DNA from: Hydrogenobaculum sp.
GTDB lineage: Bacteria; Aquificota; Aquificia; Aquificales; Aquificaceae
Direction of reading: 5' to 3'
DNA length: 56,175 nt
Assembly (NCBI GenBank): GCA_002878215.1
Contig: PNJC01000044.1
Location: forward strand, 1 to 56,175
In this document: positions 1 through 54,795 of the stretch, in pieces
How the letters are laid out: each line of letters begins with the position of its first letter
Position numbering within the stretch: position 1 is the first letter of the stretch
Program-made: the position numbers and the translations under genes
Notes under the pieces: generated by a model
Told to the model about the DNA's origin: nothing
The model's input: only the letters and a program-made list of their open reading frames with translations
The model's database searches: none

Positions 1-282
1 CAAATGCCAGACGGTACAAAAAAAGTGGTAAGGTTTGACATGAACCTTTTAAACTGCCTATTCTGTGGATTATGCGTGGATGCTTGCCCAGTAGAATGTC
101 TTACTATGTCGGATATACATGAGATGGCCGTTTACAGAAGGGCTCAAGCTGTCATTCATATGGATGATATGGAAAAAATAGGAGCTACAAACGCCACCGT
201 AGTTAGAAACTTGCCAGATAGAATATGGCGAGACGATAAAGAGAGAGAAACTCTCTGGGGTAAGGTGAAATGGAACTTTTAG
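1..282 (+). CDS. nuoI: NADH-quinone oxidoreductase subunit I, copy 1 (5'-truncated by window edge)
   Basis: CLFCGLCVDACP ferredoxin motif; frame open from position 1; directly upstream of nuoJ; homologous to 9088..9714. Confidence 0.92.
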   Translation, partial: QMPDGTKKVVRFDMNLLNCLFCGLCVDACPVECLTMSDIHEMAVYRRAQAVIHMDDMEKIGATNATVVRNLPDRIWRDDKERETLWGKVKWNF

Positions 283-767
283 TGTTCGTGGTTATTTCCA
301 CTATAGCTATTGCAAGCGCTTTAGGGGCTATTCTTGTCAAAAGCCCAATACACGTCATGGTATGGTTTCTTGGATTTATTTTATCAGTAGCAGCGTCTTT
401 TTTTGCCCTCAAAGCAGACTTGCTCGCTGGTTTGCAACTTGTAATATACGCAGTGGCTATAGTGGTTTTTTATGTGTTAGTAATTACCACTATACCTTGG
501 GAAAAGGTTAAGATGTTTGAGGGATTTTATAAAAAAGAGTTTGTATTTGCATTGCCAGCTTTCTTATTTACAGTAGGAGCTTCCATTTATCTTGTCATAA
601 ACTCAAGACTTTCTAATTTGAGACAGCCTTTACCAAAAGACAACGTAAGCGCTCTTGGAACGGTACTTTTCACAAAGTATATAGCACCTTTTGAGTTGGC
701 ATCATTTATTTTGTTAATAGCTATGATAGGTGCTATAATATTTGGCAAGGAGAAAGCCAATGGATAA
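270..767 (+). CDS. nuoJ: NADH-quinone oxidoreductase subunit J, copy 1
   Basis: Hydrophobic; LQLVIYAVAIVVF and PFELASFILLIAMIGAI motifs; gene order I-J-K-L. Confidence 0.93.
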   Translation: MELLVFVVISTIAIASALGAILVKSPIHVMVWFLGFILSVAASFFALKADLLAGLQLVIYAVAIVVFYVLVITTIPWEKVKMFEGFYKKEFVFALPAFLFTVGASIYLVINSRLSNLRQPLPKDNVSALGTVLFTKYIAPFELASFILLIAMIGAIIFGKEKANG

Positions 768-1056
768 ATACTACTTGCTTCTTGGTATAGTGCTTGTGTT
801 CATTGGTATTTTTGGTATTATAATAAGGAAAAACTTAATCACTATGCTAGTAGCCACTGAAATTATGCTAAACGGCGTAAACATATCTTTAGTATCTGTA
901 TCCCATTTTTTGGGAAAGGTGGATGCTCAGGTAATGAGTATAATAGTTTTGACTGTAGCTGCCTCAGAGGTGGCGATAGGCCTTGGTTTGGTGGTATCTA
1001 TTTTTAGATTAAAAGGTTATGAAGCTTCTGAAGAAATAACGGAGTTGAGGGATTGA
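760..1056 (+). CDS. nuoK: NADH-quinone oxidoreductase subunit K, copy 1
   Basis: RKNLI...EIMLN...AASEVAIGLG motifs with both conserved Glu; ATG at 760 after AAGGAG preferred over TTG at 742. Confidence 0.94.
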   Translation: MDKYYLLLGIVLVFIGIFGIIIRKNLITMLVATEIMLNGVNISLVSVSHFLGKVDAQVMSIIVLTVAASEVAIGLGLVVSIFRLKGYEASEEITELRD

Positions 1057-2748
1057 TGCAATCTCTAATACTTCTTTTCCCACTGCTATCCTTTATAACG
1101 ATAGGGCTGTTTGGCAGACGTATAGGTGATCTTGCATCAGGCGTAATAAACGCCGGTGCTGGTATATTGAGCTTTATAGTGGCTCTTATCACCATGCTGT
1201 CTATGAAAGGACCAGAAGATATAGTATTTTACAAATTCTTACCTTTATCAAACACATCTTTAGACATAGGTATATATATAGATAAACTGTCTATCACCAC
1301 TACAGTTACCGTTACTTTTGTAGCCAGTGTTATATTTGTATACGCAATAGGCTATATGAGATATCTTTTTGGTAACTGGACATTTAAATTCTTTGCATAC
1401 TTTAGTTTGTTCTTGTTCTCAATGCTTCTTATACTGCTGGGAGATTCTCTTATACTTATGTTCTTTGGATGGGAAGGTGTTGGTCTTGCATCTTATCTTT
1501 TGATAGGGTACTTTCATGAAGAAAAGTTTGCTACAAAGGCAAGTTTAGAAGCCTTTGTGATGAATAGAATAGGAGACTGGTCTTTTATTTTAGGTATCAT
1601 ATATACTTTTTGGTTGTTTGGTACGTTATCCTTGCCAAAACTTTTTGAGAACGCCAACTATGTTCCCGGTATCACTTTAGCTACGCTTCTTCTTTTTGGC
1701 GGTGCTGTGGGCAAATCAGGACAAATTCCTCTACATACGTGGCTTCCAAATGCAATGGCTGGTCCAACTCCTGTATCAGCACTTCTACACGCTGCTACAA
1801 TGGTGGCTGCTGGTGTTTACATGGTGGCAAGACTTTATCCAATATTTTCTTTGTCCCAAACAACGCTAAGCTATATAGCAATAACAGGTGTTGTTACAAT
1901 GCTTTTTGCCGCTTTGGTGGCTACAGTGCATGACGATATAAAAAAGATAATAGCTTTTTCTACCATGAGTCAATTGGCAATCATGTTTACAGCCCTTGGT
2001 ATGGGATTTCCAACAGCAGCTATGTTTCATCTTACAACACACGCTTTCTTTAAGGCTCTCTTGTTCTTAGCTGCCGGTGCTGTAATAACAGGGCTTCATC
2101 ATCACACTCAAAACATATTTGAAATGGGTGGTCTCAAAAAATACATGCCTATTACCTTTTCAGCTTTTATGATAGGTGCGTTGGCACTTTCTGGCTTTCC
2201 TCCCTTTGCCGGTTATTTTTCAAAAGATGCTATAGTATCTTCGGTAATGGATAAAAATACGCTTGTAGCCACGTTAATACTTGTAGCTTCTATGCTTACA
2301 GCTTATTACATAACCAGAGAAGCTTTTGTGGTGTTCTTAGGACAAGGGCATTACCATGAAGAACCTCACGAAGTAGAACCTATAATGAGCTTTCCAATGC
2401 TTATACTAAGCTTTCTATCCCTTATGGGTGGATTTTTGCTTTGGAACTATTTCTCCTACATGAACAGCTCTATAGAACCACCTTCTTCTTTCATAGCACA
2501 TTCTATTTACGGTATCTTAGTTGCCATAGTAGGTATATCTCTTTCTTATCTTTTGTATGTCAAAAAAATTGTAGATCCAAATACGCTTTACGAACTATTT
2601 AAGCCTATACACACTCTTATGAAATCTCAGTTTTACACAGAATACATCTATCACAACATAATAGCAAAAGGTTATCTTGCCATATCAAGGCTTATATATA
2701 AAGCAGTAGATCGTATAATAATAGATGGATTTGTGAACGGGGTGGCAA
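1055..2748 (+). repeat. Direct repeat copy A (1694 bp), covering nuoL-1 up to the lateral helix
   Basis: Matches 10555..12248 at a constant 9500-bp offset; proteins identical up to ...IDGFVNGVA; alternate-frame ORFs at 1739 and 11239 also identical; sequences diverge at 1054/10554 and 2749/12249. Identity spot-checked by eye, not computed. Confidence 0.95.
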
Positions 2749-2957
2749 AAGTATTTATGATTTTAGTAAGATTTGTTTGGGAATTTATAGATATAAGGTT
2801 TATAGACATAATATTACATAAAATTGTCATATGGACCTTTTCTTTTGGAAGAAAATTGAAGATTATTCAAAGTGGATATTTAAATCAGTATATATTTGTC
2901 ATTCTCTTAGGAATTGTGATAATATTAGGACTTATCATAAAAGGCATGAGGTTGTAG
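1056..2957 (+). CDS. nuoL: NADH-quinone oxidoreductase subunit L, copy 1 (long lateral-helix form, 633 aa)
   Basis: GWEGVGLASYLLIG, NRIGD, KSGQIPLHTWLPNAMAGPTPVSALLHAATMV, HAFFKALLFL motifs; ATG overlaps nuoK stop (TGATG). Confidence 0.96.
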   Translation: MQSLILLFPLLSFITIGLFGRRIGDLASGVINAGAGILSFIVALITMLSMKGPEDIVFYKFLPLSNTSLDIGIYIDKLSITTTVTVTFVASVIFVYAIGYMRYLFGNWTFKFFAYFSLFLFSMLLILLGDSLILMFFGWEGVGLASYLLIGYFHEEKFATKASLEAFVMNRIGDWSFILGIIYTFWLFGTLSLPKLFENANYVPGITLATLLLFGGAVGKSGQIPLHTWLPNAMAGPTPVSALLHAATMVAAGVYMVARLYPIFSLSQTTLSYIAITGVVTMLFAALVATVHDDIKKIIAFSTMSQLAIMFTALGMGFPTAAMFHLTTHAFFKALLFLAAGAVITGLHHHTQNIFEMGGLKKYMPITFSAFMIGALALSGFPPFAGYFSKDAIVSSVMDKNTLVATLILVASMLTAYYITREAFVVFLGQGHYHEEPHEVEPIMSFPMLILSFLSLMGGFLLWNYFSYMNSSIEPPSSFIAHSIYGILVAIVGISLSYLLYVKKIVDPNTLYELFKPIHTLMKSQFYTEYIYHNIIAKGYLAISRLIYKAVDRIIIDGFVNGVAKVFMILVRFVWEFIDIRFIDIILHKIVIWTFSFGRKLKIIQSGYLNQYIFVILLGIVIILGLIIKGMRL

Positions 2958-4463
2958 ATGGAATATATTACCAACGGCTCTGGACTTATAAGTATTTCGA
3001 TGTTAATCCCTGTTGCAACAACTATTTTAATAGTATTTTTGCCTGAGAAGTTTACAAAACCGATAGCTTTTGTTGGTTCGTTAATTACGTTTCTCATCTC
3101 TTTATATACTCTCAAATTTCTCAATTTCTCTAATCTGTCAGACATATACCTTTACGAAAATTATCCCATCGTAAAAGAGCTTGGTATTTCTTATGCTGTT
3201 GGTGTAGACGGGCTATCAGAGGTATTTTATATATTATCTACGTTCATATCTTTTTTAGCAATAGCTTGGTCGGTAAAGGATATTCAAATTAAAAGCAGGT
3301 TAAAAGAATATTATTCTATGTTTTTACTGACCACCACTTTTCTAATAGGGGTTTTTACGGCTTGGGATTTGATATTATTTTATATATTTTATGAGCTTAC
3401 CTTAGTGCCCATGATATTTGTAATAGGGGTTTGGGGATATAAATTAAGACTCTATTCTGCTTACAAATTTTTTATATATATCTTTATTTCTAGCTTGTTT
3501 TTGTTGTTTGGTATAATGATTTTATCCGCTGATAGTTTTAAGCAAACCGGTCATTTCAACGCCTTTTATCCAACACTTTTACATTTGCATCTTCCACTCA
3601 ATGAACAAATCTTTTTATTTTTATTGTTCTTCATAGCTTTTGCGGTTAAAACACCGCTGGTACCATTTCACACATGGCTTCCGGATGCTCACGGCGAAGC
3701 TCCTACAGCTGGTTCTGTAGTGCTGGCAGCTATACTCTTAAAGATGGGTTCTTACGCCTTTTTGAGATTTAACATAGGCCTTTTCCCAGAAGCCGCTAAA
3801 CACCTGTGGCTTGTGATGGTTTTTATAGGTATCCTAACAATAATTTACGCCTCTTGGATGACCATAGCCCAAAACAACATAAAGCGCTTCGTGGCTTATT
3901 CTTCTGTTAGTCATATGGGTTTTATAGTGGCAGCTATGTTTATGCTAAACTTTCAGGGTTTTAGAGCCTCTGTATTAGAGATGGTGGCTCATGGATTTTC
4001 TAGCGCATCTTTGTTCATGATAGCTGGATTTATATACAACAGGTTACACTCTTTTAACACAAAAACTATAGCTGGTTCCGTAAAATATATGCCTATTTTT
4101 TCAATACTTGTAGCCCTTACCGGTTTTTCTGCGATGGGACTACCTGGTGGTTCTTCTTTCTGGGGTAAATTTTTAACCATAGTATCTGCAAAAGAGCACA
4201 GCTTGGATTTAGCTTTGATAGTTATAGTTAGTGCATTTTTTAGCGCCATATATATGCTTTACTTTCTTAGAAACTTGTTTTTGGAAGGCAAGACCGAAGG
4301 TTCTTTTCTCATATTTACAGATATAAGAGGCATAAAACTAACGGTTATGCTTAGCCTTGTTGTGTTGATGTTTACCATAGGGCTTTTCCCGTTTTTATTT
4401 TTTAACATCTTTGATGCTTCTATATTGAATATACTTCATATTGTTGGAATGGTTAAGAGGTAG
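2958..4463 (+). CDS. nuoM: NADH-quinone oxidoreductase subunit M, copy 1 (TM12 Lys variant)
   Basis: VGVDGLS, FYELTLVPM, KTPLVPFHTWLPDAHGEAPTAGSVVLAAILLKMG, YSSVSHMG motifs. Confidence 0.93.
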   Translation: MEYITNGSGLISISMLIPVATTILIVFLPEKFTKPIAFVGSLITFLISLYTLKFLNFSNLSDIYLYENYPIVKELGISYAVGVDGLSEVFYILSTFISFLAIAWSVKDIQIKSRLKEYYSMFLLTTTFLIGVFTAWDLILFYIFYELTLVPMIFVIGVWGYKLRLYSAYKFFIYIFISSLFLLFGIMILSADSFKQTGHFNAFYPTLLHLHLPLNEQIFLFLLFFIAFAVKTPLVPFHTWLPDAHGEAPTAGSVVLAAILLKMGSYAFLRFNIGLFPEAAKHLWLVMVFIGILTIIYASWMTIAQNNIKRFVAYSSVSHMGFIVAAMFMLNFQGFRASVLEMVAHGFSSASLFMIAGFIYNRLHSFNTKTIAGSVKYMPIFSILVALTGFSAMGLPGGSSFWGKFLTIVSAKEHSLDLALIVIVSAFFSAIYMLYFLRNLFLEGKTEGSFLIFTDIRGIKLTVMLSLVVLMFTIGLFPFLFFNIFDASILNILHIVGMVKR

Positions 4464-4466
4464 TCT

Positions 4467-5948
4467 ATGGATATAAGGCTTCTACTGGGTTCTACAAACT
4501 TATACGAGTTTAAATACTTACTTCCAGAAATAACGGTGTTTTTTGGTGCATTTGTCTTATTTTTGCTAGATATCGTTATGAAAAACTCGGAAACAAAGAA
4601 GAGGGTTTTTCTATGGATATCAATTTTGTTTTTGGCTTTATCGGTGCTTAGTTTTTCATTTAAAAGTGCATTTTTTAAAGATGTTTTCTCTGGTACCTAT
4701 ACTATAGACACGCTTGGTATGTTTTCTAAAATTTTTGAGATAGTTCTCACACTAATGGTATTGCCATTTTTACACACTTACATGAATAAAAAGAATACAT
4801 TTTATTACGAAGTTTATTATATAACCTTTCTAAGTTTGCTAGGTATGATGACGCTTTCTTCTTCTTACAATCTTGTTGTAATATATGTGTCGCTTGAGAT
4901 GGTGTCTATTAGTTTTTATATAATGACAGCTCTTTTTAGAGGGTCTTTTATATCAAAAGAAGGTGCTTACAAATACCTTATTATAGGTGGTATAAGTATA
5001 ATAATAGCTCTTTATGGTGCAGCCTTTATGTATGCAGCTTCTAAATCCTTGGATATAAGAGCCATTATGTCTTCTTACAACGATGCAAACGCAGCTTATC
5101 TTATAGTGGGTATGATATTGTTTTTATTAGCTTTTGCTATAAAAATTGGTATAATACCCTTTCATTTTTGGCTTCCGGATGCTTATACTGCAGCTCCTAC
5201 TCCTATAACCGGCTTTATGGCATCAGCTGGTAAGCTGGCGTTTTTTATACCTTTACTAAGGTTAGTGCCTTACGTAAACCAACATTTATATTCATCTTGG
5301 ATGATATCCGTAAGTATATTAGCTGCCGCCACCATGATAGTGGGTAATGCTTTGGCTTTGGTACAAAGCGATTTAAAAAGACTATTGGCTTACTCTTCAA
5401 TAGCCCATAGCGGATATATACTCTCTGTGTTGTCTTCTAACTCTAGTATGGGTTTAAAAGCTGCGATATATTTTGTGTTTGTTTATAGTGTAATGGGACT
5501 TGGTGCTTTCTTGGTATTAAGCGTGTTAGAACAAGCTGAGGAATGGGACAATCAACTTCCTAAAATAGGTGGACTATATAGAAACACTGGATTTTTGAGC
5601 ATAAGTTTTGCAGTATTCATATTTGCATTGTTAGGAATTCCGCCAACAGTAGGTTTTGTAGGTAAGGCTTTAGTATTTTTGGGGCTTGCTATAAAAAATA
5701 TATATTGGCTTGGATTTGTTCTAATATTGGCTACGGCTATATCTACCGGTTATTACGTAAGGATCGTGGTACTTATGTTTATGAAAGATGTGGAATTTCG
5801 CTTCAAACCACATTATGATATATTAGAAAATGTGTCTATAAGCCTTTTAGTTTTTCTTACTTTTGTGCTTGGGATGTTTCCGTTTGTACTTTGGAATGGT
5901 ATTAGCAATATTTCGGAATTTTTATTTAAAATAGCTAACTTGAGGTGA
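4467..5948 (+). CDS. nuoN: NADH-quinone oxidoreductase subunit N, copy 1
   Basis: [46 protein letters not shown] motifs. Confidence 0.94.
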
Positions 5949-5953
5949 TTTGT

Positions 5954-6325
5954 ATGGCTTATATAGGTCTTTTATCTTTGTTGGCTGTTATGCTTGGGTT
6001 GAGCGTTGTGCTTATATCGTTGAACTGGCTTTTAGGGCCTAAGAAAAAAGAGCCTTACAAAACCTATCCTTACGAATGTGGTGTTCCTCTTTACGATGAT
6101 ACCGCTCAGACTACGTTCCATCAAGGGTATTATATATTAGGTCTTCTTCTGCTGTTGTTTGATATAGAAGTAGCCTATTTATTTCCTTGGGCTGTTGTTT
6201 ATAACTATCTTGGTATATTTGGATTTATAGAAGTGTTTTTGTTTCTTTTGATTTTAACGTTTGGTTTGGTGTATGCCTGGAAAAAAGAAGCGCTTGATTG
6301 GCAGTTTGATTTGGAGAGTTTGTGA
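5954..6325 (+). CDS. nuoA: NADH-quinone oxidoreductase subunit A
   Basis: PYECG and LFDIEVAYLFPWA motifs, C-terminal AWKKEALDW; ATG at 5954 after GAGGTG. Confidence 0.95.
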   Translation: MAYIGLLSLLAVMLGLSVVLISLNWLLGPKKKEPYKTYPYECGVPLYDDTAQTTFHQGYYILGLLLLLFDIEVAYLFPWAVVYNYLGIFGFIEVFLFLLILTFGLVYAWKKEALDWQFDLESL

Positions 6326-8040
6326 TGCAAGCAAGTGAAAGGACTTTAAACGAAATAAAAGCTAAGCTACCTTATGTAGAAGTTAAAAAGGATAAATTAT
6401 TATCTGTAGTTTATGTACAAAAAGAATTGCTTATCAATACTTTAAAAGCTATAAAAGAAGACTTTGGCTTTAAGCTTTTCATAGACCATTCTGTAGTGGA
6501 TACTTTAGAGGCTCAAAATCGTTTTGAGGCTTTTTATATACTGTACAACGTTGATACAAAAGAACGTATAGTAGTAAAGACTAGAACTGAGCATTCGTTG
6601 CCAAGCGCAGAAAAGTTATGGTTTGCAGCTAAATGGGCCGAAAGAGAATGCTACGATATGTTTGGTATAAACTATGAGGGTCACGAACATCTAGTTAGGG
6701 CTTTCATGTGGGATACTTATAGCCATCATCCGTTGAGAAAAGATTTTCCGTTGCAAGGTTATGAAACAGTAGAACTACCTTCCTTAAATGAAACTGTTTT
6801 TGGAGACACCCTTTCTGGTACTATGAACTATAGACGCACGCACACATATGTGCCTACGCTGAAAGATTTGGAATATACAGAAAGAAATAGGATAAAAAAG
6901 AAAGCTCAGGTAGTGCTCAACTGGGGTCCGCTTCACCCTGGGACTCACGGCACTATGTGGTTTTTGTTTGACCTTGAAGGAGAGCGTATAGTACAAACCG
7001 ATGTCATACTTGGGCAACTTCATAGAGGCGTTGAAAAGTTAGCAGAACACGAACCCTATCAACAATTTTTGGTATATACAGACAGAATGGATTATATATC
7101 TGCTCTTTGTAGCAATCAGGCTTGGACTGTGGCTGTAGAAAGGCTTCTTGGCATAGAAGATATTGTACCGCTAAAAGCCAAATACATAAGAACCATGATG
7201 TCTGAATTACAACGTATAAACTCTCATCTTCTTTGGCTTGGAACTTACGCTCTTGATTTGGGTGCTTTAACTATATTTTTATACGCTTTTAAAGAAAGAG
7301 AAAAAATAATGGATATAATAGAAGGCATAACGGGCGCAAGACTCACTATATCTTATACAAGAATAGGTGGAGTGAGAATGGACCTACCGGAAGGGGCTTT
7401 AGAAGTTATTGAATCTTTTATAAAGTTTTTCCCTAAAGAGTTAAAAGACTGGGAGAAAATACTTAGTAGAAATAGAATATGGGTTAAAAGAAACAAAGAT
7501 GTAGGTGTTTTATCTAAAGAAGACATATATTTTTACGGGCTTACAGGTGCTGTTGCAAGAGGTTCTGGTGTATTTTACGATATAAGAAAATTAGAACCCT
7601 ACGATGCTTACAGCATGGTGGAATTTGATGTACCCTTGGGGGAAAACGGCGATTGTTACGATAGATACCTTGTCCGTATAGAAGAGATGAAACAAAGTAT
7701 AAGGATAATAGAGCAATGTGTTCAAAAGCTGAAAACTATGTCGCCAAACGAGCCTTTTATGGCAGAATCTCAAGACCCTAAAAAACTAAAACTTACATTG
7801 GATGGTATAGGCTTGAAAGTACCAGCTGGGGAGATTTATTCCTCAGGAGAAAACCCGCGAGGTGAGCTTGGGTTTTATATAAATTCAAAAGGCGGTTTAA
7901 AGCCTTACAGAGTAAAGATAAGACCGGGCTCTTTTTATAATCTTTGTGTATATCCTCATCTTATGGAAAATAGGTATGTGGCAGATGCTGTTACTATATT
8001 GGCAAGCCTTGACCCTGTTGTTGGGGAGGTAGATAGATGA
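6325..8040 (+). CDS. nuoCD: NADH-quinone oxidoreductase fused subunit C/D
   Basis: NuoC motifs WAERECYDMFGI and HPLRKDFPL, followed by NuoD motifs NWGPLHPGTHG, LHRGVEK, DRMDY, C-terminal GEVDR. Confidence 0.96.
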   Translation: MQASERTLNEIKAKLPYVEVKKDKLLSVVYVQKELLINTLKAIKEDFGFKLFIDHSVVDTLEAQNRFEAFYILYNVDTKERIVVKTRTEHSLPSAEKLWFAAKWAERECYDMFGINYEGHEHLVRAFMWDTYSHHPLRKDFPLQGYETVELPSLNETVFGDTLSGTMNYRRTHTYVPTLKDLEYTERNRIKKKAQVVLNWGPLHPGTHGTMWFLFDLEGERIVQTDVILGQLHRGVEKLAEHEPYQQFLVYTDRMDYISALCSNQAWTVAVERLLGIEDIVPLKAKYIRTMMSELQRINSHLLWLGTYALDLGALTIFLYAFKEREKIMDIIEGITGARLTISYTRIGGVRMDLPEGALEVIESFIKFFPKELKDWEKILSRNRIWVKRNKDVGVLSKEDIYFYGLTGAVARGSGVFYDIRKLEPYDAYSMVEFDVPLGENGDCYDRYLVRIEEMKQSIRIIEQCVQKLKTMSPNEPFMAESQDPKKLKLTLDGIGLKVPAGEIYSSGENPRGELGFYINSKGGLKPYRVKIRPGSFYNLCVYPHLMENRYVADAVTILASLDPVVGEVDR

Positions 8041-9083
8041 GTATAGTAGCTTTGGGTATCATAATAGCTATCAAAGTAGTAGTTATACTAGCCATAATAC
8101 TTGGTATAGGTGCTTACCTTACGCTAGTGGAAAGAAAGGTGGCAGCTCACATTCAAAGACGCCCAGGTCCAATGGTGGTGGGTTGGCACGGGCTTTTACA
8201 ACCTTTGGCAGACGGTATTAAGCTTTTAACAAAGGAAGATATATTGCCGTCTTCTGCAAATCAAGTACTTTACAATCTAGCTATCATTATGGCTTTGGTC
8301 CCAGCTTCTTTGGTGTTTGCTGTAGTACCTTTTGGACCAGAGATACATGTGTTTGGTTACGATGTAAAACCTATACTTACAGATGTAAACATTGGCATAA
8401 TAATGGCGTTTGCTTTTGGGTCTTTAGCGGTATATGGAGTAGCCCTTTCTGGATGGGCTTCAAATAGTAAATACGCTTTAATAGGTGCTCTTAGAAAAGC
8501 TGGTATTATCATATCCTACGAGGTGGTAATTACATTTGCAGCGTTAGGACCTATTATGTTGGCAAAGTCTCTTTCCACATACGATATAGTAATGGCTCAA
8601 ATCCATCAGAAGGTTTGGTATATTTTCTTACAACCTATATCTTTTGTAGTATTTGTTTTTGCGCTTTTGGCAGAAACCGGAAGAGTGCCTTTTGATATCC
8701 AAGAAGCAGAGGCTGAACTCGTAACAGGTTTTACAGTAGAATACGGCGGTATGAAATTTGGATTATTTCCTTTGGTGGAATGGTACGTAGAAGTGCTTTC
8801 TCTATCCTCTATATTGACTGTGCTCTACCTTGGTGGTTGGAGTCCTATAAATATACCTTTTGTAGGATTTGTAGACCCTCTTTTCTTTTTGGGACCATGG
8901 TCTGGCTTTATTTGGTTTATAATAAAAGTTACCATTTTGTTTTTGCTTGTGCTTTGGCTTCATTGGACGTTGCCAAGGTATAGAATAGACCAAATTACTA
9001 CGATAGCGTGGAAAGTGATGTTGCCTTTGGCACTTTTTAACATACTTATAACTGCCTTTATAGCACCTTTGTTGAGAGGTTAG
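8037..9083 (+). CDS. nuoH: NADH-quinone oxidoreductase subunit H
   Basis: ERKVAAHIQRRPGP, LADGIKLLTKE, AETGRVPFDIQEAEAELVTGF, PRYRIDQ motifs. Confidence 0.96.
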   Translation: MSIVALGIIIAIKVVVILAIILGIGAYLTLVERKVAAHIQRRPGPMVVGWHGLLQPLADGIKLLTKEDILPSSANQVLYNLAIIMALVPASLVFAVVPFGPEIHVFGYDVKPILTDVNIGIIMAFAFGSLAVYGVALSGWASNSKYALIGALRKAGIIISYEVVITFAALGPIMLAKSLSTYDIVMAQIHQKVWYIFLQPISFVVFVFALLAETGRVPFDIQEAEAELVTGFTVEYGGMKFGLFPLVEWYVEVLSLSSILTVLYLGGWSPINIPFVGFVDPLFFLGPWSGFIWFIIKVTILFLLVLWLHWTLPRYRIDQITTIAWKVMLPLALFNILITAFIAPLLRG

Positions 9084-9087
9084 GATT

Positions 9088-9714
9088 ATGATAAAGAAAG
9101 TTTTTGAAAAACCTTTAAACTTTTTGGAAACTATACTTTTCTTGGATTTTATAAAGGGTATGTCTATCACTATCAAGCAAGCCTTTACAAAGACTATAAC
9201 TACTCATTATCCTTATGAAAAATTAACACCTCCTAAAAGATTTAGGGGATTTTTTGGCCACAAAACGGTAAACGGCTTGGAACCGCAACCGGCTTTTGAC
9301 GAATGGGTAGAGAGAATGAAAATAGAGCCCCGTCCAGGTCAGTCAAGGTGTGTTGTATGCTATTTATGTAAAAAAGCTTGCCCAGTACCAGATTTATTTG
9401 AGATAGATGGTCAAAAACTTGAAAACGGTAAAAAGGTCGTATCTGTATTCAATATGAACCTTATGCTTTGCACATTTTGTGGTTTGTGTGTAGATGCTTG
9501 CCCAGTAGATTGTTTATTCCAAAGCGATATACACGAAACAGCTTCTTTTTCAAGAAAAGATTCTATTTTAAACTTAGAAAAGCTTGAAGCTATAGGTAAA
9601 TCTTGGCAAGACAGAAGAGAGCATGAGCCAGACCGTATATGGATAGACGATGATGCTAGACAAGCTCTTTGGAGAGAAAACAAATTAAATCTTAAAAAGG
9701 TGGACAATGCTTAA
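9088..9714 (+). CDS. nuoI: NADH-quinone oxidoreductase subunit I, copy 2
   Basis: THYPYEK...RFRG motif; two CxxCxxCxxxCP motifs (CVVCYLCKKACP, CTFCGLCVDACP). Confidence 0.95.
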   Translation: MIKKVFEKPLNFLETILFLDFIKGMSITIKQAFTKTITTHYPYEKLTPPKRFRGFFGHKTVNGLEPQPAFDEWVERMKIEPRPGQSRCVVCYLCKKACPVPDLFEIDGQKLENGKKVVSVFNMNLMLCTFCGLCVDACPVDCLFQSDIHETASFSRKDSILNLEKLEAIGKSWQDRREHEPDRIWIDDDARQALWRENKLNLKKVDNA

Positions 9715-10228
9715 CCAAATCGCTTTTTATCTATTTGGTAGTATAAGCATAATATGTGGTTTGGGTGTTGTTAGTGCCTCAAATCCAATATACGTAGTTT
9801 TATGGCTTTTAGGAGCTTTAATAGCGATAAGTGGAATATTTTTCAGCGCTGGTGCTGAGCTTTTGGGAGCTCTTCAGCTAATGGTTTACGTTGTGGCTAT
9901 AGCAGTTTTTTATATACTCATCATTACAGCGGTTCCTTGGAGAAAACTACATAAAAACGAACAGCACAATAGATTGATAGGCGTCACCGTACTTCCTTTT
10001 ATAGCCCTGTTGTATGTAGAAGCTTTCATAGTGGGAATATCTGGTGTTTCTATAACTAAAAATAAAATTATAGAAACTATAACAAAAAACTATGGAAATG
10101 CAGAGGTAATTGGTATTAAACTATTTAGCACATATTTTTGGGCTTTTGAGCTCATGTCTGTGCTTTTGCTTATTAGTATGATAGGGGCCATTTTGCTTGG
10201 TAGAAAAGAGGAGAAAACGTATGATTGA
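9707..10228 (+). CDS. nuoJ: NADH-quinone oxidoreductase subunit J, copy 2
   Basis: LQLMVYVVAIAVF and AFELMSVLLLISMIGAILL motifs; gene order. Confidence 0.93.
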   Translation: MLNQIAFYLFGSISIICGLGVVSASNPIYVVLWLLGALIAISGIFFSAGAELLGALQLMVYVVAIAVFYILIITAVPWRKLHKNEQHNRLIGVTVLPFIALLYVEAFIVGISGVSITKNKIIETITKNYGNAEVIGIKLFSTYFWAFELMSVLLLISMIGAILLGRKEEKTYD

Positions 10229-10553
10229 GACTATTGCTAGCAAATTGTTGGTTCAAAATGTGAGTCAGTATTTTATCTTGTCATTTATACTTCTTGGGAT
10301 AGGGCTTTTTGGCATGATGGTTAGAAAAAACCTTATTACCATTTTAATGTCTTTAGAGTTAGCGTTAAACTCTGTAAATATAGCCTTTGTTGGTATAGAT
10401 AGGCTAAACCATCTTATAGACGGTGAGATTTTTGCCCTTTTTACAATAGCTTTAGCGGCAGCTGAAGCAGCGGTTGGTCTTGGTATTATACTTTCTTTGT
10501 TTAGATTAAGAAAAGCAGAAAACGTAAACGAAATCATAGATTTGAAGGGGTAA
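10221..10553 (+). CDS. nuoK: NADH-quinone oxidoreductase subunit K, copy 2
   Basis: RKNLITILMSLELALN and AAAEAAVGLGI motifs; ATG at 10221 after GAGGAG. Confidence 0.94.
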   Translation: MIETIASKLLVQNVSQYFILSFILLGIGLFGMMVRKNLITILMSLELALNSVNIAFVGIDRLNHLIDGEIFALFTIALAAAEAAVGLGIILSLFRLRKAENVNEIIDLKG

Positions 10554-10554
10554 A

Positions 10555-12248
10555 GATGCAATCTCTAATACTTCTTTTCCCACTGCTATCCTTTATAACG
10601 ATAGGGCTGTTTGGCAGACGTATAGGTGATCTTGCATCAGGCGTAATAAACGCCGGTGCTGGTATATTGAGCTTTATAGTGGCTCTTATCACCATGCTGT
10701 CTATGAAAGGACCAGAAGATATAGTATTTTACAAATTCTTACCTTTATCAAACACATCTTTAGACATAGGTATATATATAGATAAACTGTCTATCACCAC
10801 TACAGTTACCGTTACTTTTGTAGCCAGTGTTATATTTGTATACGCAATAGGCTATATGAGATATCTTTTTGGTAACTGGACATTTAAATTCTTTGCATAC
10901 TTTAGTTTGTTCTTGTTCTCAATGCTTCTTATACTGCTGGGAGATTCTCTTATACTTATGTTCTTTGGATGGGAAGGTGTTGGTCTTGCATCTTATCTTT
11001 TGATAGGGTACTTTCATGAAGAAAAGTTTGCTACAAAGGCAAGTTTAGAAGCCTTTGTGATGAATAGAATAGGAGACTGGTCTTTTATTTTAGGTATCAT
11101 ATATACTTTTTGGTTGTTTGGTACGTTATCCTTGCCAAAACTTTTTGAGAACGCCAACTATGTTCCCGGTATCACTTTAGCTACGCTTCTTCTTTTTGGC
11201 GGTGCTGTGGGCAAATCAGGACAAATTCCTCTACATACGTGGCTTCCAAATGCAATGGCTGGTCCAACTCCTGTATCAGCACTTCTACACGCTGCTACAA
11301 TGGTGGCTGCTGGTGTTTACATGGTGGCAAGACTTTATCCAATATTTTCTTTGTCCCAAACAACGCTAAGCTATATAGCAATAACAGGTGTTGTTACAAT
11401 GCTTTTTGCCGCTTTGGTGGCTACAGTGCATGACGATATAAAAAAGATAATAGCTTTTTCTACCATGAGTCAATTGGCAATCATGTTTACAGCCCTTGGT
11501 ATGGGATTTCCAACAGCAGCTATGTTTCATCTTACAACACACGCTTTCTTTAAGGCTCTCTTGTTCTTAGCTGCCGGTGCTGTAATAACAGGGCTTCATC
11601 ATCACACTCAAAACATATTTGAAATGGGTGGTCTCAAAAAATACATGCCTATTACCTTTTCAGCTTTTATGATAGGTGCGTTGGCACTTTCTGGCTTTCC
11701 TCCCTTTGCCGGTTATTTTTCAAAAGATGCTATAGTATCTTCGGTAATGGATAAAAATACGCTTGTAGCCACGTTAATACTTGTAGCTTCTATGCTTACA
11801 GCTTATTACATAACCAGAGAAGCTTTTGTGGTGTTCTTAGGACAAGGGCATTACCATGAAGAACCTCACGAAGTAGAACCTATAATGAGCTTTCCAATGC
11901 TTATACTAAGCTTTCTATCCCTTATGGGTGGATTTTTGCTTTGGAACTATTTCTCCTACATGAACAGCTCTATAGAACCACCTTCTTCTTTCATAGCACA
12001 TTCTATTTACGGTATCTTAGTTGCCATAGTAGGTATATCTCTTTCTTATCTTTTGTATGTCAAAAAAATTGTAGATCCAAATACGCTTTACGAACTATTT
12101 AAGCCTATACACACTCTTATGAAATCTCAGTTTTACACAGAATACATCTATCACAACATAATAGCAAAAGGTTATCTTGCCATATCAAGGCTTATATATA
12201 AAGCAGTAGATCGTATAATAATAGATGGATTTGTGAACGGGGTGGCAA
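10555..12248 (+). repeat. Direct repeat copy B (1694 bp)
   Basis: Matches 1055..2748 at a 9500-bp offset. Confidence 0.95.
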
Positions 12249-12394
12249 GTACTACGTCAAATTACGGTAAACCTATTAGCAGACTTCAAAATGGCAAGCT
12301 AAATTACTACGCTCTTTATATGCTTTACGGTGTTGTTTGTGTATTTTTGCTTTTAATCTTAGTAATCTTTAAAGGGGGTATCCTAAATGGCTAG
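10556..12394 (+). CDS. nuoL: NADH-quinone oxidoreductase subunit L, copy 2 (standard lateral-helix length, 612 aa)
   Basis: Same motifs as nuoL-1; distinct C-terminus ...SRLQNGKLNYYAL. Confidence 0.96.
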   Translation: MQSLILLFPLLSFITIGLFGRRIGDLASGVINAGAGILSFIVALITMLSMKGPEDIVFYKFLPLSNTSLDIGIYIDKLSITTTVTVTFVASVIFVYAIGYMRYLFGNWTFKFFAYFSLFLFSMLLILLGDSLILMFFGWEGVGLASYLLIGYFHEEKFATKASLEAFVMNRIGDWSFILGIIYTFWLFGTLSLPKLFENANYVPGITLATLLLFGGAVGKSGQIPLHTWLPNAMAGPTPVSALLHAATMVAAGVYMVARLYPIFSLSQTTLSYIAITGVVTMLFAALVATVHDDIKKIIAFSTMSQLAIMFTALGMGFPTAAMFHLTTHAFFKALLFLAAGAVITGLHHHTQNIFEMGGLKKYMPITFSAFMIGALALSGFPPFAGYFSKDAIVSSVMDKNTLVATLILVASMLTAYYITREAFVVFLGQGHYHEEPHEVEPIMSFPMLILSFLSLMGGFLLWNYFSYMNSSIEPPSSFIAHSIYGILVAIVGISLSYLLYVKKIVDPNTLYELFKPIHTLMKSQFYTEYIYHNIIAKGYLAISRLIYKAVDRIIIDGFVNGVASTTSNYGKPISRLQNGKLNYYALYMLYGVVCVFLLLILVIFKGGILNG

Positions 12395-13865
12395 TATTCT
12401 CAATATAGCTATATTTTTACCTTTGGTGGGCGCTTTTATAGTGTCTCTTTTTAGAAATGAGTGGCTTACTAAGGTAGTATCTATAGCGATATCAGGGGTC
12501 GTTTTCGCTTTAAGCGTTATACTACTTGTTAACTTTAATCCAAACACTCATCATTTTCTTTATAGGACTACCGTACCATGGATATCATCTCTTGGCATAA
12601 ATTACGATGTTGGTTTAGATGGGCTTGGTGTATCTTTGTTTACCCTTACTGCTCTTATATTTTTTACAGTTTTTATATGGGCTATAAAAGTAAAGGAAAA
12701 ACCAAATCTTTTTTACGCATTGTTTCTAATACTTGAAACCACTTGCCTTGGTACCTTCTCTGCTCTTGATCTATTCTTGTTTTACCTTTTCTGGGAAGGA
12801 ATGCTAGTTCCTATGTACTTCATAATAGGTTTCTGGGGACACGATAGAAAAATATATGCTGCAAATAAATTCTTTATATACACATTTTTTGGTAGTTTAT
12901 TTTTACTGCTTGGTTTAGCCACAATGATAGTTTATGGTTATTTTATAAGTGGTCATATATCTTTTGAATACGACTTCCATAGGCATATAGCTTATCCTCT
13001 TTGGCTTCAAATAATACTTTTTGTGCTTTTCGGTATAGGCTTTGCCGTAAAGGTACCCATGTGGCCTGTACACACGTGGCTTCCAGATGCTCACGTAGAA
13101 GCTCCTACTGCTGGTTCAGTGGTTTTGGCGGGAGTTTTGCTAAAAATGGGCACTTTTGGCTTTGTAAGGTACTCTCTTCCTCTTTTCCCACAAGCTTCCA
13201 AGATATTTATCCCTATCATGTTTATGCTTAGTGTAATAGCTATTATTTACGCTGCTATGATGGCTATATCTCAAACAAACATAAAGAAGTTGATAGCATA
13301 TTCTTCAATCAGCCACATGGGAATGGTAACCCTTGGAACATTTGCCCTTTCTGTGAGTGCTATAAATGGGGCTTCTTATATGATGATAGCTCACGGTCTT
13401 AGTTCTGCAGCTTTATTTTATGCAGCTGGTTTTATATATGATAGATTCCATTCCTATGAGATGTCGGATTTAGGCGGTATAGCCAAATATCTTCCAAACT
13501 TTGCTATTTTATTTATGATAAGCGGTTTGGCATCTATAGGGCTTCCTGGTTTCTCTGGTTTTGTCTCTGAGTTTTTAATACTGCTCGGCACTTTCAAATA
13601 TTTCCCAATGTGGGCTATTGTTGCTGGTGTAGGAATGGTGCTCGGCGCAGCATACTTCTTGTATATGTATAAGAATGTAATGCTTGAATCTGCCTCTTTA
13701 CCAGAATCTAAAATCCAAAAACTTCAACATACTATGGATTTGGAGCTTCACCACATTATACCTTTTGTGTTAATACTTTTTGGTGCTTTTATAATGGGAA
13801 TTATGCCATATAACTTTGTTAACATAGTCTCTCAAACATCAAAGCTTATTTTAGGGAGATTTTGA
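12387..13865 (+). CDS. nuoM: NADH-quinone oxidoreductase subunit M, copy 2 (canonical)
   Basis: FWEGMLVPM, KVPMWPVHTWLPDAHVEAPTAGS, GLPGFSGFVSEF motifs. Confidence 0.95.
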   Translation: MASILNIAIFLPLVGAFIVSLFRNEWLTKVVSIAISGVVFALSVILLVNFNPNTHHFLYRTTVPWISSLGINYDVGLDGLGVSLFTLTALIFFTVFIWAIKVKEKPNLFYALFLILETTCLGTFSALDLFLFYLFWEGMLVPMYFIIGFWGHDRKIYAANKFFIYTFFGSLFLLLGLATMIVYGYFISGHISFEYDFHRHIAYPLWLQIILFVLFGIGFAVKVPMWPVHTWLPDAHVEAPTAGSVVLAGVLLKMGTFGFVRYSLPLFPQASKIFIPIMFMLSVIAIIYAAMMAISQTNIKKLIAYSSISHMGMVTLGTFALSVSAINGASYMMIAHGLSSAALFYAAGFIYDRFHSYEMSDLGGIAKYLPNFAILFMISGLASIGLPGFSGFVSEFLILLGTFKYFPMWAIVAGVGMVLGAAYFLYMYKNVMLESASLPESKIQKLQHTMDLELHHIIPFVLILFGAFIMGIMPYNFVNIVSQTSKLILGRF

Positions 13866-15259
13866 TGAAAGCGTTGTATCCTGATATCATCACAACTGTA
13901 GGCATAATATTTCTGATAATTTTAGAGTTGTTTTTGCCAAGCTTTGACCTTATAGGTTTTCTTGGGTTTTTAATAAGCTTTATAAGTGGCGTGCTAGCTA
14001 TAAAATACTCGTTGGCAGGATATCGTTTCAACGAGTGGTTGCTTGATATAAATGCTTTTTCTTTGTTTTTAAAAGGTGTAATATACATACTAACATCTTT
14101 TGTGATATTTAGTTCTGTAAGCTTTTTTAAAAGCAAAAAGACCTTCTTAGAAAATGTATATACGTTTCTTCTTATCTCTTTAGGCCTTTCAATAATGGTA
14201 TCTTCTAAAAATCTTGCAGTTATATTGTCTGGCTTGGAACTTGCCTCTATATCCATGTACATATCCGTTGGTATGTTAAGGGACGACTACGTGTCAAAAG
14301 AAGCATCTTTTAAATACCTTGTGCTTGGAAGCATGGCTACTGCATTTTTTGGTATTGGGAGCGCATTCTATATAGGGGCTACTTCCCATCTTGGTATCAT
14401 AAGCGTATCCGTTAACCATAACACCGCTTTTGCCTTAGCATCTTTGTTTTTGTTTATAGCTTTTGCTCTAAAAGTATCAGCGGCACCTTTTCATTTTTGG
14501 ACACCAGACGCTTACGAAGGGGCTCCCACTTCTACCACAGCCTTCATATCTACGGTTCCAAAAATAGGGTTTTATGCGGTTATATTTTTGTTGGCAAGTT
14601 ATATATTTCCTATAACCAACAATTTTAGCTATATAGTTGGTATTGTAGGTGTTATATCAATGTTTTGGGGAAACTTGGTAGCTTACGCTCAGAATTCTGC
14701 CAAAAGGATGCTGGCTTATTCTTCAATAGGGCATGCTGGTTATTTCCTAATAGGTTTTTCAAGATACAATCCGTTATCGGTAAGCTCCACAATATTTTAT
14801 GTGATAGTTTACGCTTTTGCTACAGCGGGTGCTTTCTTGGTGCTTTCAATACTAGAAAAAAATCAATCTTGGACCCACGACATGAACAACTATAAAGCAC
14901 TTTACAAAAAAAGCCCCTTTTTGGCAGCTGCTTTAGCTTTATTTTTGTTTGCTTTAATAGGCATACCGCCTTTTGCTACTTTCGTAGGTAAGTTAGGCAT
15001 ATTTTTGGGTCTTGTAAACTCCAACGCTTGGTTTTTCGCTATTTTGTTTGTTATAGGTAGTGTCATAGCCGCTGGTTATTATTTAAAATTAATTGTTTAT
15101 ATGTTTTTTAAAGAACCTGTTGCGGAGGACAATATGTCGTTGTCACTTAACTTATTCGATACAATAGGGATTAGTGCTTTTCTTGTGGCTGTTTTTTTCT
15201 TCGGAATTTTTCCAAACGTATTGTTTGATATAATATTAAAAGATATGTTTCATGGGTAA
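13865..15259 (+). CDS. nuoN: NADH-quinone oxidoreductase subunit N, copy 2
   Basis: EASFKY, KVSAAPFHFWTPDAYEGAP, KRMLAYSSIGHAGY, GIPPFATFVGK motifs. Confidence 0.94.
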   Translation: MKALYPDIITTVGIIFLIILELFLPSFDLIGFLGFLISFISGVLAIKYSLAGYRFNEWLLDINAFSLFLKGVIYILTSFVIFSSVSFFKSKKTFLENVYTFLLISLGLSIMVSSKNLAVILSGLELASISMYISVGMLRDDYVSKEASFKYLVLGSMATAFFGIGSAFYIGATSHLGIISVSVNHNTAFALASLFLFIAFALKVSAAPFHFWTPDAYEGAPTSTTAFISTVPKIGFYAVIFLLASYIFPITNNFSYIVGIVGVISMFWGNLVAYAQNSAKRMLAYSSIGHAGYFLIGFSRYNPLSVSSTIFYVIVYAFATAGAFLVLSILEKNQSWTHDMNNYKALYKKSPFLAAALALFLFALIGIPPFATFVGKLGIFLGLVNSNAWFFAILFVIGSVIAAGYYLKLIVYMFFKEPVAEDNMSLSLNLFDTIGISAFLVAVFFFGIFPNVLFDIILKDMFHG

Positions 15260-18807: not shown

Positions 18808-19947
18808 ATGCAGATATTTTTGTTTTTTATATCATGGTTCTTCTGGACCTTGATGGTGGCTTGGTTTTCTTTTAACCTTTTAAAACCCCACTACGGAAGA
18901 CCTTATCCAGTGCATTTTAAGTATGAGCCTTCTTTTTTTAACCATTTTATGCATTGGGACGCTGTTTGGTATACACATATAGCAGTTTACGGTTATAGAA
19001 ATTCAACGGTACATATTCCCACTATAGCGTTTTTCCCTGGTTACCCTCTTATAATGAAATTTATACACATTGTTGTAGGAAAGGATATATCGTTCTTATA
19101 TATACTGCCTGCTATCATTTTCCAAGGGGCTTCCATATATATGCTTTATCTTCTTCTAAAAGCCCTAAACAAAAAAGAATCAACTATTTATATGACTATA
19201 CTTTTATTTGCTTTTTATCCATCTTCTTTTTTTGGTATGTCCGCGTATCCTGTTTCTGCCTTAAACTTTTTTGCTATAAGCGTATTCTATCTTCTTATAA
19301 AACGACAACAGTTGTTGGCTAGTGTTTTAGCTGGTCTCGGGACACTTTTTGGTCCTTTGGCAGTATTTTTATCTTTTGTTGTATTTTTTGATATCGTTAA
19401 AAGCAAAAAAACCACTGACTATCCAAAGGCTATTTTGTATGGCGCTTTATCTCTTTGGGGGTTCTTTGCTTTTGTTTTGTATAGCTTTTACAAATTTAAA
19501 GATCCAATAGCTTTTATTCATGCTCAAGACTGGTGGGGTAAGCCTACGTTGTTAAAACGTATATCAAATATACTCATGCTAATTCCGCACGATATACCTT
19601 CCCATCCTATATCAACGCCACTTGGGGTTTACGAATTTGATCATTTTATAAACTTGCTAATTATGATAGCCTACATACTTATAATTGTGTTTGCTATTGA
19701 TAAATTACCTTTGCACTATACGCTGTTCGCAATTCTTATATTGGCTGAGTACTTATGGGCTTTAGGGGGTATTTTTATCAACACAAGCGCTTTTGCAAGA
19801 CTATCTTATATAAGCGTGCCGCTTTTTATAGCACTTGCTAATTTCCTTGAAGATTATCCATGGTTGATAGGCATAATATCACCGCTTTTTTTCTTTGCAA
19901 ATTTTGTATTAGAGGCTTTGTTTGTAAAAAACTACTGGTCTATATAA
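18808..19947 (+). CDS. GT-C fold membrane mannosyltransferase family protein (PIG-V-like)
   Basis: HWDAVWYTHIAVYGY...AFFPGYP motif; multiple TM helices; FIHAQDWWG. Confidence 0.75.
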   Translation: MQIFLFFISWFFWTLMVAWFSFNLLKPHYGRPYPVHFKYEPSFFNHFMHWDAVWYTHIAVYGYRNSTVHIPTIAFFPGYPLIMKFIHIVVGKDISFLYILPAIIFQGASIYMLYLLLKALNKKESTIYMTILLFAFYPSSFFGMSAYPVSALNFFAISVFYLLIKRQQLLASVLAGLGTLFGPLAVFLSFVVFFDIVKSKKTTDYPKAILYGALSLWGFFAFVLYSFYKFKDPIAFIHAQDWWGKPTLLKRISNILMLIPHDIPSHPISTPLGVYEFDHFINLLIMIAYILIIVFAIDKLPLHYTLFAILILAEYLWALGGIFINTSAFARLSYISVPLFIALANFLEDYPWLIGIISPLFFFANFVLEALFVKNYWSI

Positions 19948-27769: not shown

Positions 27770-27883
27770 AGATGTATATTTTACAATACTTTTTTATTAA
27801 AAGCTTCAGAAACTTAAAGCTATTATTTTAAGACTTTAACAAAGAAAACTCTATTTATGATTTTAGTTTATAATAGTTTTACT

Positions 27884-30074: not shown

Positions 30075-30819
30075 ATTTTTTATATTTGGTTTTTTGTTGT
30101 CCATACTAATACACCTATCTTTTTTGCTTGCTCTGGTAAAAATAAATATACCCTTTAAAAAACCGAATAAACCGGTCTACATAAGCACAATAAAACAAGT
30201 AAGCAACAAAAGACCTTCTAAAAAGGTATCAAACATTTCCAAAAGAGAAAAAAGGTATATTAAAAAACAAAAAATCATGAAAAAATCTATGTCAAAAGCC
30301 AAAAACATCAAAAAAGACAACTATTATAAACCAAACTACAATCTTGCAATACCAACGCTCCAAGAAGCTACATTAACATCAAAACAAAAAACACATTCTA
30401 CGAAGATATCTTCTAAGGGAAGTATCAAAAGATCTTATAAAGAAAACTCTCCTGAAAAAGGCGAAAACCAAGAAAAAAACCAAACAAATAAATCAAAAAC
30501 AACGAAATCATCCAACACTGCTTCAAATATCAAACCATTAAAGGAAAAACCCAAAAGCGTTCCACAAATGAAGCCTAAAAATATAAGCACACTAGGTTCT
30601 TATTTTGACTTTCTTAGCTATCTAGAAAATGTGTTTCATTATATACATCAAAACTGCAAAGGAGAGGGAGTATTGATGTTTGATCTTTACAAAGACGGAA
30701 GTTTAAAGCTTTTAGAAACGCAAAAAGGATCAGTCACTTGTGAAAAGAATTTACAAGCTCCGCCTATGCCATCAAGCGTTATGGAAAACAAAATCCAATT
30801 TCTTATAAATATACCTTAA
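30061..30819 (+). CDS. TonB/TolA-like membrane-anchored protein
   Basis: N-terminal TM helix with SxxxH (LLSILIHLS); long Lys/Ser-rich linker; short C-terminal domain with two Cys. Confidence 0.55.
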   Translation: MRRHKFFIFGFLLSILIHLSFLLALVKINIPFKKPNKPVYISTIKQVSNKRPSKKVSNISKREKRYIKKQKIMKKSMSKAKNIKKDNYYKPNYNLAIPTLQEATLTSKQKTHSTKISSKGSIKRSYKENSPEKGENQEKNQTNKSKTTKSSNTASNIKPLKEKPKSVPQMKPKNISTLGSYFDFLSYLENVFHYIHQNCKGEGVLMFDLYKDGSLKLLETQKGSVTCEKNLQAPPMPSSVMENKIQFLINIP

Positions 30820-54749: not shown

Positions 54750-54795
54750 AAATGTATTATACAAACTTTTTCAAAAAGTGATAAAATTAGTTATT

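Follow-up and report, generated by a model that had tools for sequence, protein, structure and literature searches.

The DNA analyzed here (the window) comprises positions 1-56,175 of contig PNJC01000044.1 from Hydrogenobaculum sp., a member of the Aquificaceae, and its start falls inside a gene cluster for respiratory complex I. The genes follow each other in the order nuoI1 (3' end), nuoJ1, nuoK1, a long nuoL, nuoM1, nuoN1, nuoA2, nuoCD2, nuoH2, nuoI2, nuoJ2, nuoK2, a short nuoL, nuoM2 and nuoN2 (Table 1). Contig C84 shares 75 bases with the start of the window and carries nuoA1, the single nuoB, nuoCD1, nuoH1 and the start of nuoI1; the order from nuoA1 to nuoK1 is uninterrupted in the single-contig genomes G011 and G021. 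We compared the cluster with those of 18 relatives, 10 of which are single-contig genomes. Each set has one nuoL, one nuoM and one nuoN, here and in the 18 relatives, and the second nuoM lies 9.4 kb downstream, not adjacent to the first. NuoE, NuoF and NuoG are encoded elsewhere in the genome, outside the cluster. Copy numbers from this draft need care because the assembly holds duplicated contigs (C112/C117 and C60/C94; 12 kb at 99.9%, 24 kb at 100%). Its two nuoF matches are one locus on duplicated contigs; nuoB and nuoG are single-copy, as is nuoF in 4 of 5 closed relatives.

The long NuoL scores 612 bits with family NF005141 (cut-off 556) and 591 bits with TIGR01974 (cut-off 407.5). The original prediction was that its lateral helix (HL) contains two successive units of 27 residues, the second of which is lacking in the other NuoL. 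Both units were found exactly at the predicted positions, and the short paralogue indeed carries one. The two units share 6 of 27 residues. When BLOSUM scores were averaged over 19 long copies, 27 was the only offset between 18 and 36 with a positive mean (+22.5; the others from -0.1 to -38.7). Asp557, Asp579 and Asp584 are invariant in all 19 long copies, and residue 552 is Asp in 18 and Glu in one. Measured from anchor to anchor, the 19 long copies exceed the 18 short copies by exactly 27 residues; with stricter anchors the span is 80 in all 17 long copies that could be parsed (of 19) and 53 in all 14 parsed short copies (of 18). The survey of NuoL paralogues showed that the insertion belongs to one family and is not found in the sister families examined: in the two sampled, all 19 NuoL are short, with a span of 53. 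As only a short NuoL and a single NuoM occur in the sister family, the long form is not shared by the whole phylum. A search for the long tail detected it in 53 of the 58 family genomes that are at least 90% complete, two of the 53 being cut at a contig end, and the five genomes without it are drafts of 60-160 contigs. A protein search with the tail alone gave 4 close matches. The length of the insertion is kept across 11 genera, single-contig genomes included.

The two nuoL genes of the window share an identical tract of 1694 bases that begins at the start codon and reaches the first codon of unit 2, and all 260 fourfold-degenerate sites of the pair agree. Such an identity could mean a mis-joined assembly, and a chimaera was therefore tested for. 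It is ruled out, as the same long/short pair is present in single-contig genomes of this and other genera and as the shared tract in other genera stops 0-17 codons past Gln525 and so leaves out most of unit 1. The insertion is thus real and not an assembly artefact. In Logan contigs from 4 runs, depth over the nuoL core was about double in two, as for a collapsed two-copy repeat, and among the pieces listed none spanned position 2748 with 31 bases on each side; neither result was used as evidence. Within a genome the NuoL cores are 89-100% identical at the protein level (18 genomes), versus about 53% between genera, and the tails 24-39%. Agreement at fourfold sites is 0.73-1.00 within a genome versus medians of 0.30-0.39 between genomes, the value within being above the best value between in 18/18. 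This indicates repeated homogenisation at the DNA level and not protein conservation. The homogenisation is also present in G015 and G033, where the copies are far apart. The other paralogue pairs of the cluster are 47% (NuoI), 36% (NuoJ), 40% (NuoK), 39% (NuoM), 35% (NuoN), 54% (NuoA), 56% (NuoCD) and 58% (NuoH) identical. Conversion tracts end 0 to 17 codons after Gln525 in most genomes and 40 codons after it in three of this genus, and never extend into unit 2 past its first codon. That they stop short of the tail in 18/18 genomes points to selection to keep the tail.

Gene order is as in the window in 16 of the 18 relatives. In the other two, G015 and G033, the long nuoL follows nuoI2-nuoJ2-nuoK2 and the short one nuoI1-nuoJ1-nuoK1, an arrangement that could have arisen by one crossover between the nuoL repeats and subsequent relocation. 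The swapped order is also seen in several drafts, but drafts can be mis-joined across the repeat. M1 and N1 are downstream of the long tail in every cluster fetched. Because the nuoL tails are swapped in two genomes, gene order cannot tell which peripheral arm joins the long NuoL, and it is unsafe to take "set 1" and "set 2" as functional units, as had been done initially. The nuoL repeats seem to be recombination sites, the block between them being found as a permuted cluster elsewhere in G015 and G033 (L046-L049). In G015, nuoH2 (L048, 7205-8253) is split in two open reading frames (ORFs) of 259 and 100 codons.

An AlphaFold2 model of the long NuoL, made from a 35-sequence alignment, has a mean predicted local distance difference test score (pLDDT) of 80.1. 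Its core superposes on E. coli NuoL (3rko_B) with Z 50.8 and a root-mean-square deviation (rmsd) of 1.9 over 538 aligned residues, and on the Thermus chain (605 residues) with Z 49.8 and rmsd 4.6, residue 579 of the model being aligned to residue 584. The insertion might have been a loop or an additional membrane helix. It is modelled as helix (helices at 528-577, 580-605 and 608-632), at low confidence (pLDDT over HL 50-63), and its mean hydrophobicity reaches 0.54 versus 0.73-0.94 for the last membrane helix. A helix of 27 residues is about 40 Å long, roughly the width of one antiporter subunit. None of the 30 NuoL-like structure chains listed is close to the long NuoL (best 370 bits).

A lengthened HL is a feature of complex I with two adjacent nuoM genes (2M complex I), and the extension had been predicted to be of 2M length. 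We searched 51 genomes of Chloroflexota and 61 of a phylum centred on Geobacteraceae and found 11 operons with adjacent nuoM genes (10 in Chloroflexota, 1 in the other). The NuoL span is 78-82 in the 10 parsed, which agrees with the prediction (80 in the long and 53 in the canonical NuoL here), and the doubled Asp pattern of these proteins is similar to that of the long NuoL. The NuoL insertion of Nitrospira 2M complex I has 26 residues, and such insertions also occur in clusters without a second nuoM (PMC9040806). No adjacent second nuoM was present among the family or sister loci fetched; as anticipated, a screen for adjacent duplicated nuoM genes would thus miss this locus. In six Chloroflexota 2M clusters (L192-L195, L219-L221, L224, L228) only A, H, J, K, L, M, M and N are present, with B, C, D and I outside the cluster. 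In Phycisphaeraceae (L092), a long NuoL with a span of 78 is followed by a single nuoM and nuoN. In the acidobacteriotal genome G136 (L208, L227), one operon encodes a long NuoL, one NuoM (Glu) and a shortened NuoD and has two small repeated ORFs inserted between its nuoK and nuoL genes, and a second operon with a canonical NuoL lies elsewhere; the layout resembles that of Aquificaceae.

The two NuoM proteins differ at a key position. In transmembrane helix 12 (TM12), M1 has a Lys in 19/19 loci and in 115 of 119 database orthologues (of the remainder, three are truncated and one was missed by the pattern), named ones being from Hydrogenobacter, Thermocrinis, Hydrogenivirga and Aquifex. M2 has a Glu in 18/18 loci, as have all 19 NuoM neighbouring NuoL in the two sister families. 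M1 thus lacks the Glu of canonical NuoM (E407 in E. coli), yet it passes TIGR01972 with 437 bits (cut-off 263.8). In a quick tree, M1 forms one clade on a long stem inside the Aquificales NuoM (SH-aLRT 99), which points to an independent origin. Identity to the sister-family NuoM is 43.5% for M1 versus 52.7% for M2. The divergence is one-sided, with 16 fixed changes in M1 versus 5 in M2: over residues 281-440 identity is 34-46% for M1 versus 47-61% for M2, and over residues 1-240 it is hardly lowered in M1. In the face-to-back order of the membrane arm, the half of NuoM with residues 281-440 faces the next distal subunit. Glu341 of M1 (3978-3980), one turn before the TM11 His, is invariant in 18/18 aligned M1 and not present in M2; it may balance Lys404. 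At TM12, Glu is conserved in NuoM and Lys in NuoL and NuoN, and the NuoN Lys faces NuoM and opens its ion pair (PMC9271201). On the NuoL side, Arg170 is invariant in 35/35 aligned sequences and is the counterpart of E. coli R175, which interacts with E407 of NuoM (PMC11938283). Two NuoM matches are present in 51 of 57 family genomes versus one in each of 35 genomes of the nearest sister family. The six family genomes with one match are all drafts; among the five re-examined, three have an antiporter gene truncated where the contig ends, in one M1 is missing at the start of a contig, and the fifth is G106, discussed below. A pattern scan for Lys-type NuoM outside the family, over 120 loci of about 320 estimated, gave 13 antiporter genes, all scoring best as NuoN; the pattern is narrow and was built to exclude the family, so that this does not prove absence. 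We had also predicted a Lys in the N-adjacent NuoM of known 2M operons; this prediction failed, with Glu in 11/11.

A second difference lies in the peripheral arm. A helix segment of NuoD has 62-63 residues in 19/19 CD2, 77 in 7/7 CD1 and 73-76 in the 12 parsed of 16 sister copies. Four operons that include nuoEFG have a segment of 73 residues, and five that lack these genes, four of them 2M operons, have one of 51-52. By genome, it is 49-54 in two without a nuoF match and 48-49 in a third, whose nuoF match falls below the cut-off. Of two genomes with nuoF, one could be parsed, and its segment has 89 residues. CD2 is therefore a NuoD without the NADH-type helix, and the EFG-less enzymes are shorter still (48-54). 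The deleted helix presumably contacts NuoG. PDB entry 7q5y, which we take to be the peripheral arm of an Aquifex-type complex I, holds NuoG and has the closest solved relatives of NuoG, CD1 and I1; it has no match to the NuoL query. Its chains are closer to CD1 than to CD2 (978 versus 734 bits) and to I1 than to I2 (335 versus 218 bits). Together with the NuoD segment, this means that CD1 and I1 can carry the NADH module and that CD2 and I2 probably cannot. On the pairing of peripheral and membrane sets, a residual rate correlation (13 subunits, 14 genomes) gave no resolution, and identity to the sister family gave a mixed signal. In the genus of G044 and G006 (L042, L044), CD2 has a 21-residue insertion in its NuoC part.

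These data may be brought together in a scheme in which the cell assembles two complex I enzymes that have one NuoM in common. An ordinary NADH enzyme would consist of the short NuoL, M2 and N2 together with CD1/I1 and NuoEFG. The long NuoL, M2, M1 and N1 would make up the membrane arm of a ferredoxin-linked enzyme with a NuoM as NuoN-like spacer. As a whole the scheme is tentative, and its parts are not equally probable. That the long NuoL serves an arm with four antiporters, in whatever order, appears likely to us. For the order long NuoL, M2, M1, N1, with M2 borrowed from the other set, we estimate a probability of about one half, on the sequence comparisons above. First, by analogy with the adjacent-2M operons, one 27-residue unit would span one more antiporter subunit. 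Second, the NuoL cores would stay identical as both dock on M2, conversion keeping them interchangeable; the core need not change because both forms would have the same partner. Third, the distal half of M1 would have been remodelled, with an N-type Lys, to face M2 instead of NuoL. The original prediction had proposed M2 or N2 as the additional subunit; M2 now appears the better candidate and N2 the poorer one. Sharing of subunits has a precedent in the single NuoB and NuoG here and the NuoF that is single in most closed relatives. Aquificaceae fix carbon by the reductive tricarboxylic acid (TCA) cycle. In a fourth step, the long arm would join A2, CD2, H2, I2, J2, K2 and the single NuoB, without NuoEFG, and trade electrons with ferredoxin for this cycle; four antiporters would raise the number of protons per electron pair and serve the uphill electron transfer to ferredoxin. 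The peripheral pairing and ferredoxin exchange are the weakest step, which could go either way even if the first three are correct, and the ferredoxin link overall is doubtful. In the accounts of 2M enzymes consulted, four-antiporter complex I is itself a hypothesis from genomes: that the longer helix carries a fourth subunit and that more protons are moved are postulates and not measurements (PMC9040806, PMC6606698), and the reduction of ferredoxin from quinol is a hypothesis (PMC6606698).

On present evidence the locus would act like 2M complex I, as a variant and not a member, since its nuoM genes are not adjacent. The two have in common a NuoL whose HL is 25-29 residues longer, at a corresponding position and with a comparable repeat of Asp residues, the availability of a second NuoM, a NuoD deletion combined with the lack of nuoEFG from the operon (also seen in 4 Chloroflexota 2M operons), and the proposed role in electron transfer from quinol to ferredoxin for the reductive TCA cycle (PMC6606698). 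In contrast to 2M operons, the two nuoM genes here belong to two nearly complete duplicated sets, one NuoM has a Lys at TM12, and there is a short NuoL twin with a gene-converted common core. The Complex_I_1 and Complex_I_2 clusters of 'Candidatus Manganitrophaceae' likewise have an HL insertion in NuoL and no second nuoM, and their genomes encode several complex I sets (PMC9040806). However, its authors leave open whether the insertion is used or a relic, whereas the converted NuoL core and one-sidedly remodelled NuoM here suggest a specific partner.

Several points weigh against a four-antiporter arm with a borrowed M2 and its pairing with the second peripheral arm. This pairing is not fixed by gene order, the long NuoL standing after J1/K1 in most relatives, and one nuoM2 gene would have to supply both complexes. 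In the draft genome G106 the long set is present, but neither M2 nor N2 was found. The two Aquifex isoforms NQOR1 and NQOR2 are said to derive from duplicated genes, to share NuoB, NuoE, NuoF and NuoG and to have three antiporter subunits each. A 2018 mass-spectrometry study of Aquifex aeolicus reportedly found one NuoM together with NuoEFG in each of the two isoforms, the second isoform being oxygen-induced and NADH-active. Cyanobacterial NdhH, although ferredoxin-linked, retains a segment of 72 residues, with a different sequence, so that the length of the segment marks such enzymes imperfectly. The modelled HL is helical with a two-residue break at 578-579, and given this break and the pLDDT of 50-63 its geometry is not established. 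Both NuoM keep the Glu in 11/11 adjacent-2M operons, and Lys is thus no 2M hallmark. Long NuoL are also found in 2 of the 7 parsed single-nuoM operons of other phyla (G136, L092; 5 more were unparsed), so that the insertion alone suggests, but does not prove, a fourth pump. Such cases are possibly in transition toward or away from extra pumps (PMC9040806). Finally, E. coli NuoM E407K forms a stable three-antiporter enzyme with lowered pumping, 1.5 H+/e- (PMC9271201), and a Lys facing NuoL is therefore workable. M1 has its substitution at the same distal TM12 site; the E. coli change is engineered, adjoins NuoL and lowers pumping (PMC9271201), whereas the M1 Lys is natural, fixed in the family, accompanied by the invariant Glu341 and predicted to face another NuoM.

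A rival reading is an ordinary three-antiporter arm of long NuoL, M1 and N1. Here the 27 added residues would turn back on the helix, lie against lipid or contact a further protein, and the M1 Lys would set a lower gear of about three H+ per electron pair. Each set has exactly one L, M and N, the E407K enzyme assembles and pumps (PMC9271201), the HL model has low confidence, and long NuoL occur with a single nuoM in other phyla. The reported single NuoM per Aquifex isoform is in line with this too. We nevertheless regard it as unlikely, since it leaves unexplained the fixed insertion of 2M length, the repeated invariant Asp pair, and a NuoL core that stays identical even though the half of NuoM that would face it is where M1 and M2 have diverged most.

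Less likely still are four antiporters with M1 used twice (long NuoL, M1, M1, N1) or with M1 beside NuoL and M2 beside NuoN. M1 twice would require no borrowing, and the long NuoL in single-nuoM operons elsewhere suggest that one M might be used twice. Both M1 and M2 keep the cytoplasmic Lys and His at the positions of E. coli K173 and H241, residues that we assume to contact HL. However, the M1 Lys would then face NuoL Arg170, the identical NuoL core would have to fit two different partners, and the divergence of M1 is one-sided. It is highly improbable that the insertion was left over from a 2M operon in an ancestor, or is a neutral product of out-of-register nuoL recombination or an assembly chimaera, the last being largely refuted: although the identical tract in this genus ends exactly at the unit boundary, the nuoL repeats do recombine (G015, G033) and relic status has been discussed for Manganitrophaceae (PMC9040806), the same length recurs across 11 genera, unit 2 has invariant residues, the conversion tracts imply selection by stopping before the tail, and no adjacent second nuoM is seen in the family or sister loci.

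The comparisons establish a family-wide insertion of fixed, 2M-like length in one of two NuoL twins, their converted core, a Lys-type NuoM and a shortened NuoD. Literature searches over listings and abstract openings found no account of the insertion in Aquificaceae, which may nonetheless be mentioned in Chadwick 2018 or its supplements, in Fig. S2 of PMC9040806 or in the Aquifex isoform paper; passages of PMC7419157, PMC3879981, PMC3144371, PMC3046159 and PMC10212512 do not address it. In every Aquificaceae cell the short NuoL, whose core is that of the long one, provides an internal control. The family includes cultured thermophiles with complex I purified and partly solved (7q5y), so that subunit count, proton ratio and ferredoxin link are directly testable. 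If the four-antiporter arm is real, preparations from a long-studied model hyperthermophile would contain an unrecognised four-pump complex I, and the reductive TCA cycle would have a route to reduced ferredoxin. If the arm has three antiporters, the family would provide a natural low-gear complex I. In either case, a natural TM12 Lys in NuoM bears on the debate on charge asymmetry in the membrane arm (PMC9271201).

Table 1. Complex I genes and features of the window
Feature	Position	Strand	Evidence or remark
3' end of nuoI1, nuoJ1, nuoK1	1..1056	+	Rest of set 1 (nuoA1, nuoB, nuoCD1, nuoH1) on contig C84
nuoL, long paralogue, 633 aa from ATG (TTG at 1053)	1056..2957	+	NF005141 and TIGR01974 above cut-off; E. 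coli NuoL fold
Gene-converted nuoL core, copy 1	1055..2748	+	blastn 100% over 1694 bases to 10555-12248
HL unit 1, residues 537-563, Asp552/Asp557; shared with canonical NuoL	2664..2744	+	Resembles the units of the sister family and the short copies more than unit 2 does
HL unit 2, the extra 27 residues, 564-590, Asp579/Asp584	2745..2825	+	Helical in AlphaFold2 model, pLDDT 50-63
Distal HL, Q-x-G motif, last membrane helix; long-paralogue-specific	2826..2957	+	24-39% identity to short tail, 18 genomes
nuoM1, divergent NuoM, Lys404 at TM12 (codon 4167-4169)	2958..4463	+	TIGR01972 above cut-off
nuoN1	4467..5948	+	TIGR01770 above cut-off
nuoA2	5945..6325	+	NuoA family matches below cut-off; 54% to nuoA on contig C84
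nuoCD2, fused, NuoD helix short by 14-15 residues (deletion site about 7765-7812)	6322..8040	+	
nuoH2, nuoI2, nuoJ2, nuoK2	8037..10553	+	
nuoL, short canonical paralogue, 612 aa; core 10555-12248 identical to copy 1	10556..12394	+	
nuoM2, canonical, Glu395 at TM12; proposed shared subunit	12387..13865	+	TIGR01972
nuoN2	13862..15259	+	TIGR01770 above cut-off

A third NuoL-like gene is located on contig C6 (182-5397), where a 529-residue protein is followed by a 244-residue membrane protein and a 962-residue protein. It precedes a large gene and looks like the DabB of a DabAB carbon pump, and was dropped as a candidate. Promoter and terminator scans of the window were at chance level (52 versus 56.3 and 11 versus 11.7). 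Elsewhere in the window, the gene for the beta subunit of a 2-oxoacid:ferredoxin oxidoreductase is found at 54676-55584. Three ORFs (18808-19947, 27857-29107 and 30061-30819) are without NCBIfam match, the first encoding a polytopic membrane protein that is glycosyltransferase-like by eye. An RND periplasmic adaptor gene at 47480-48573, upstream of a CusA/CzcA-type transporter, is split in two ORFs (profile positions 2-119 and 180-315) by a frameshift or an assembly error.

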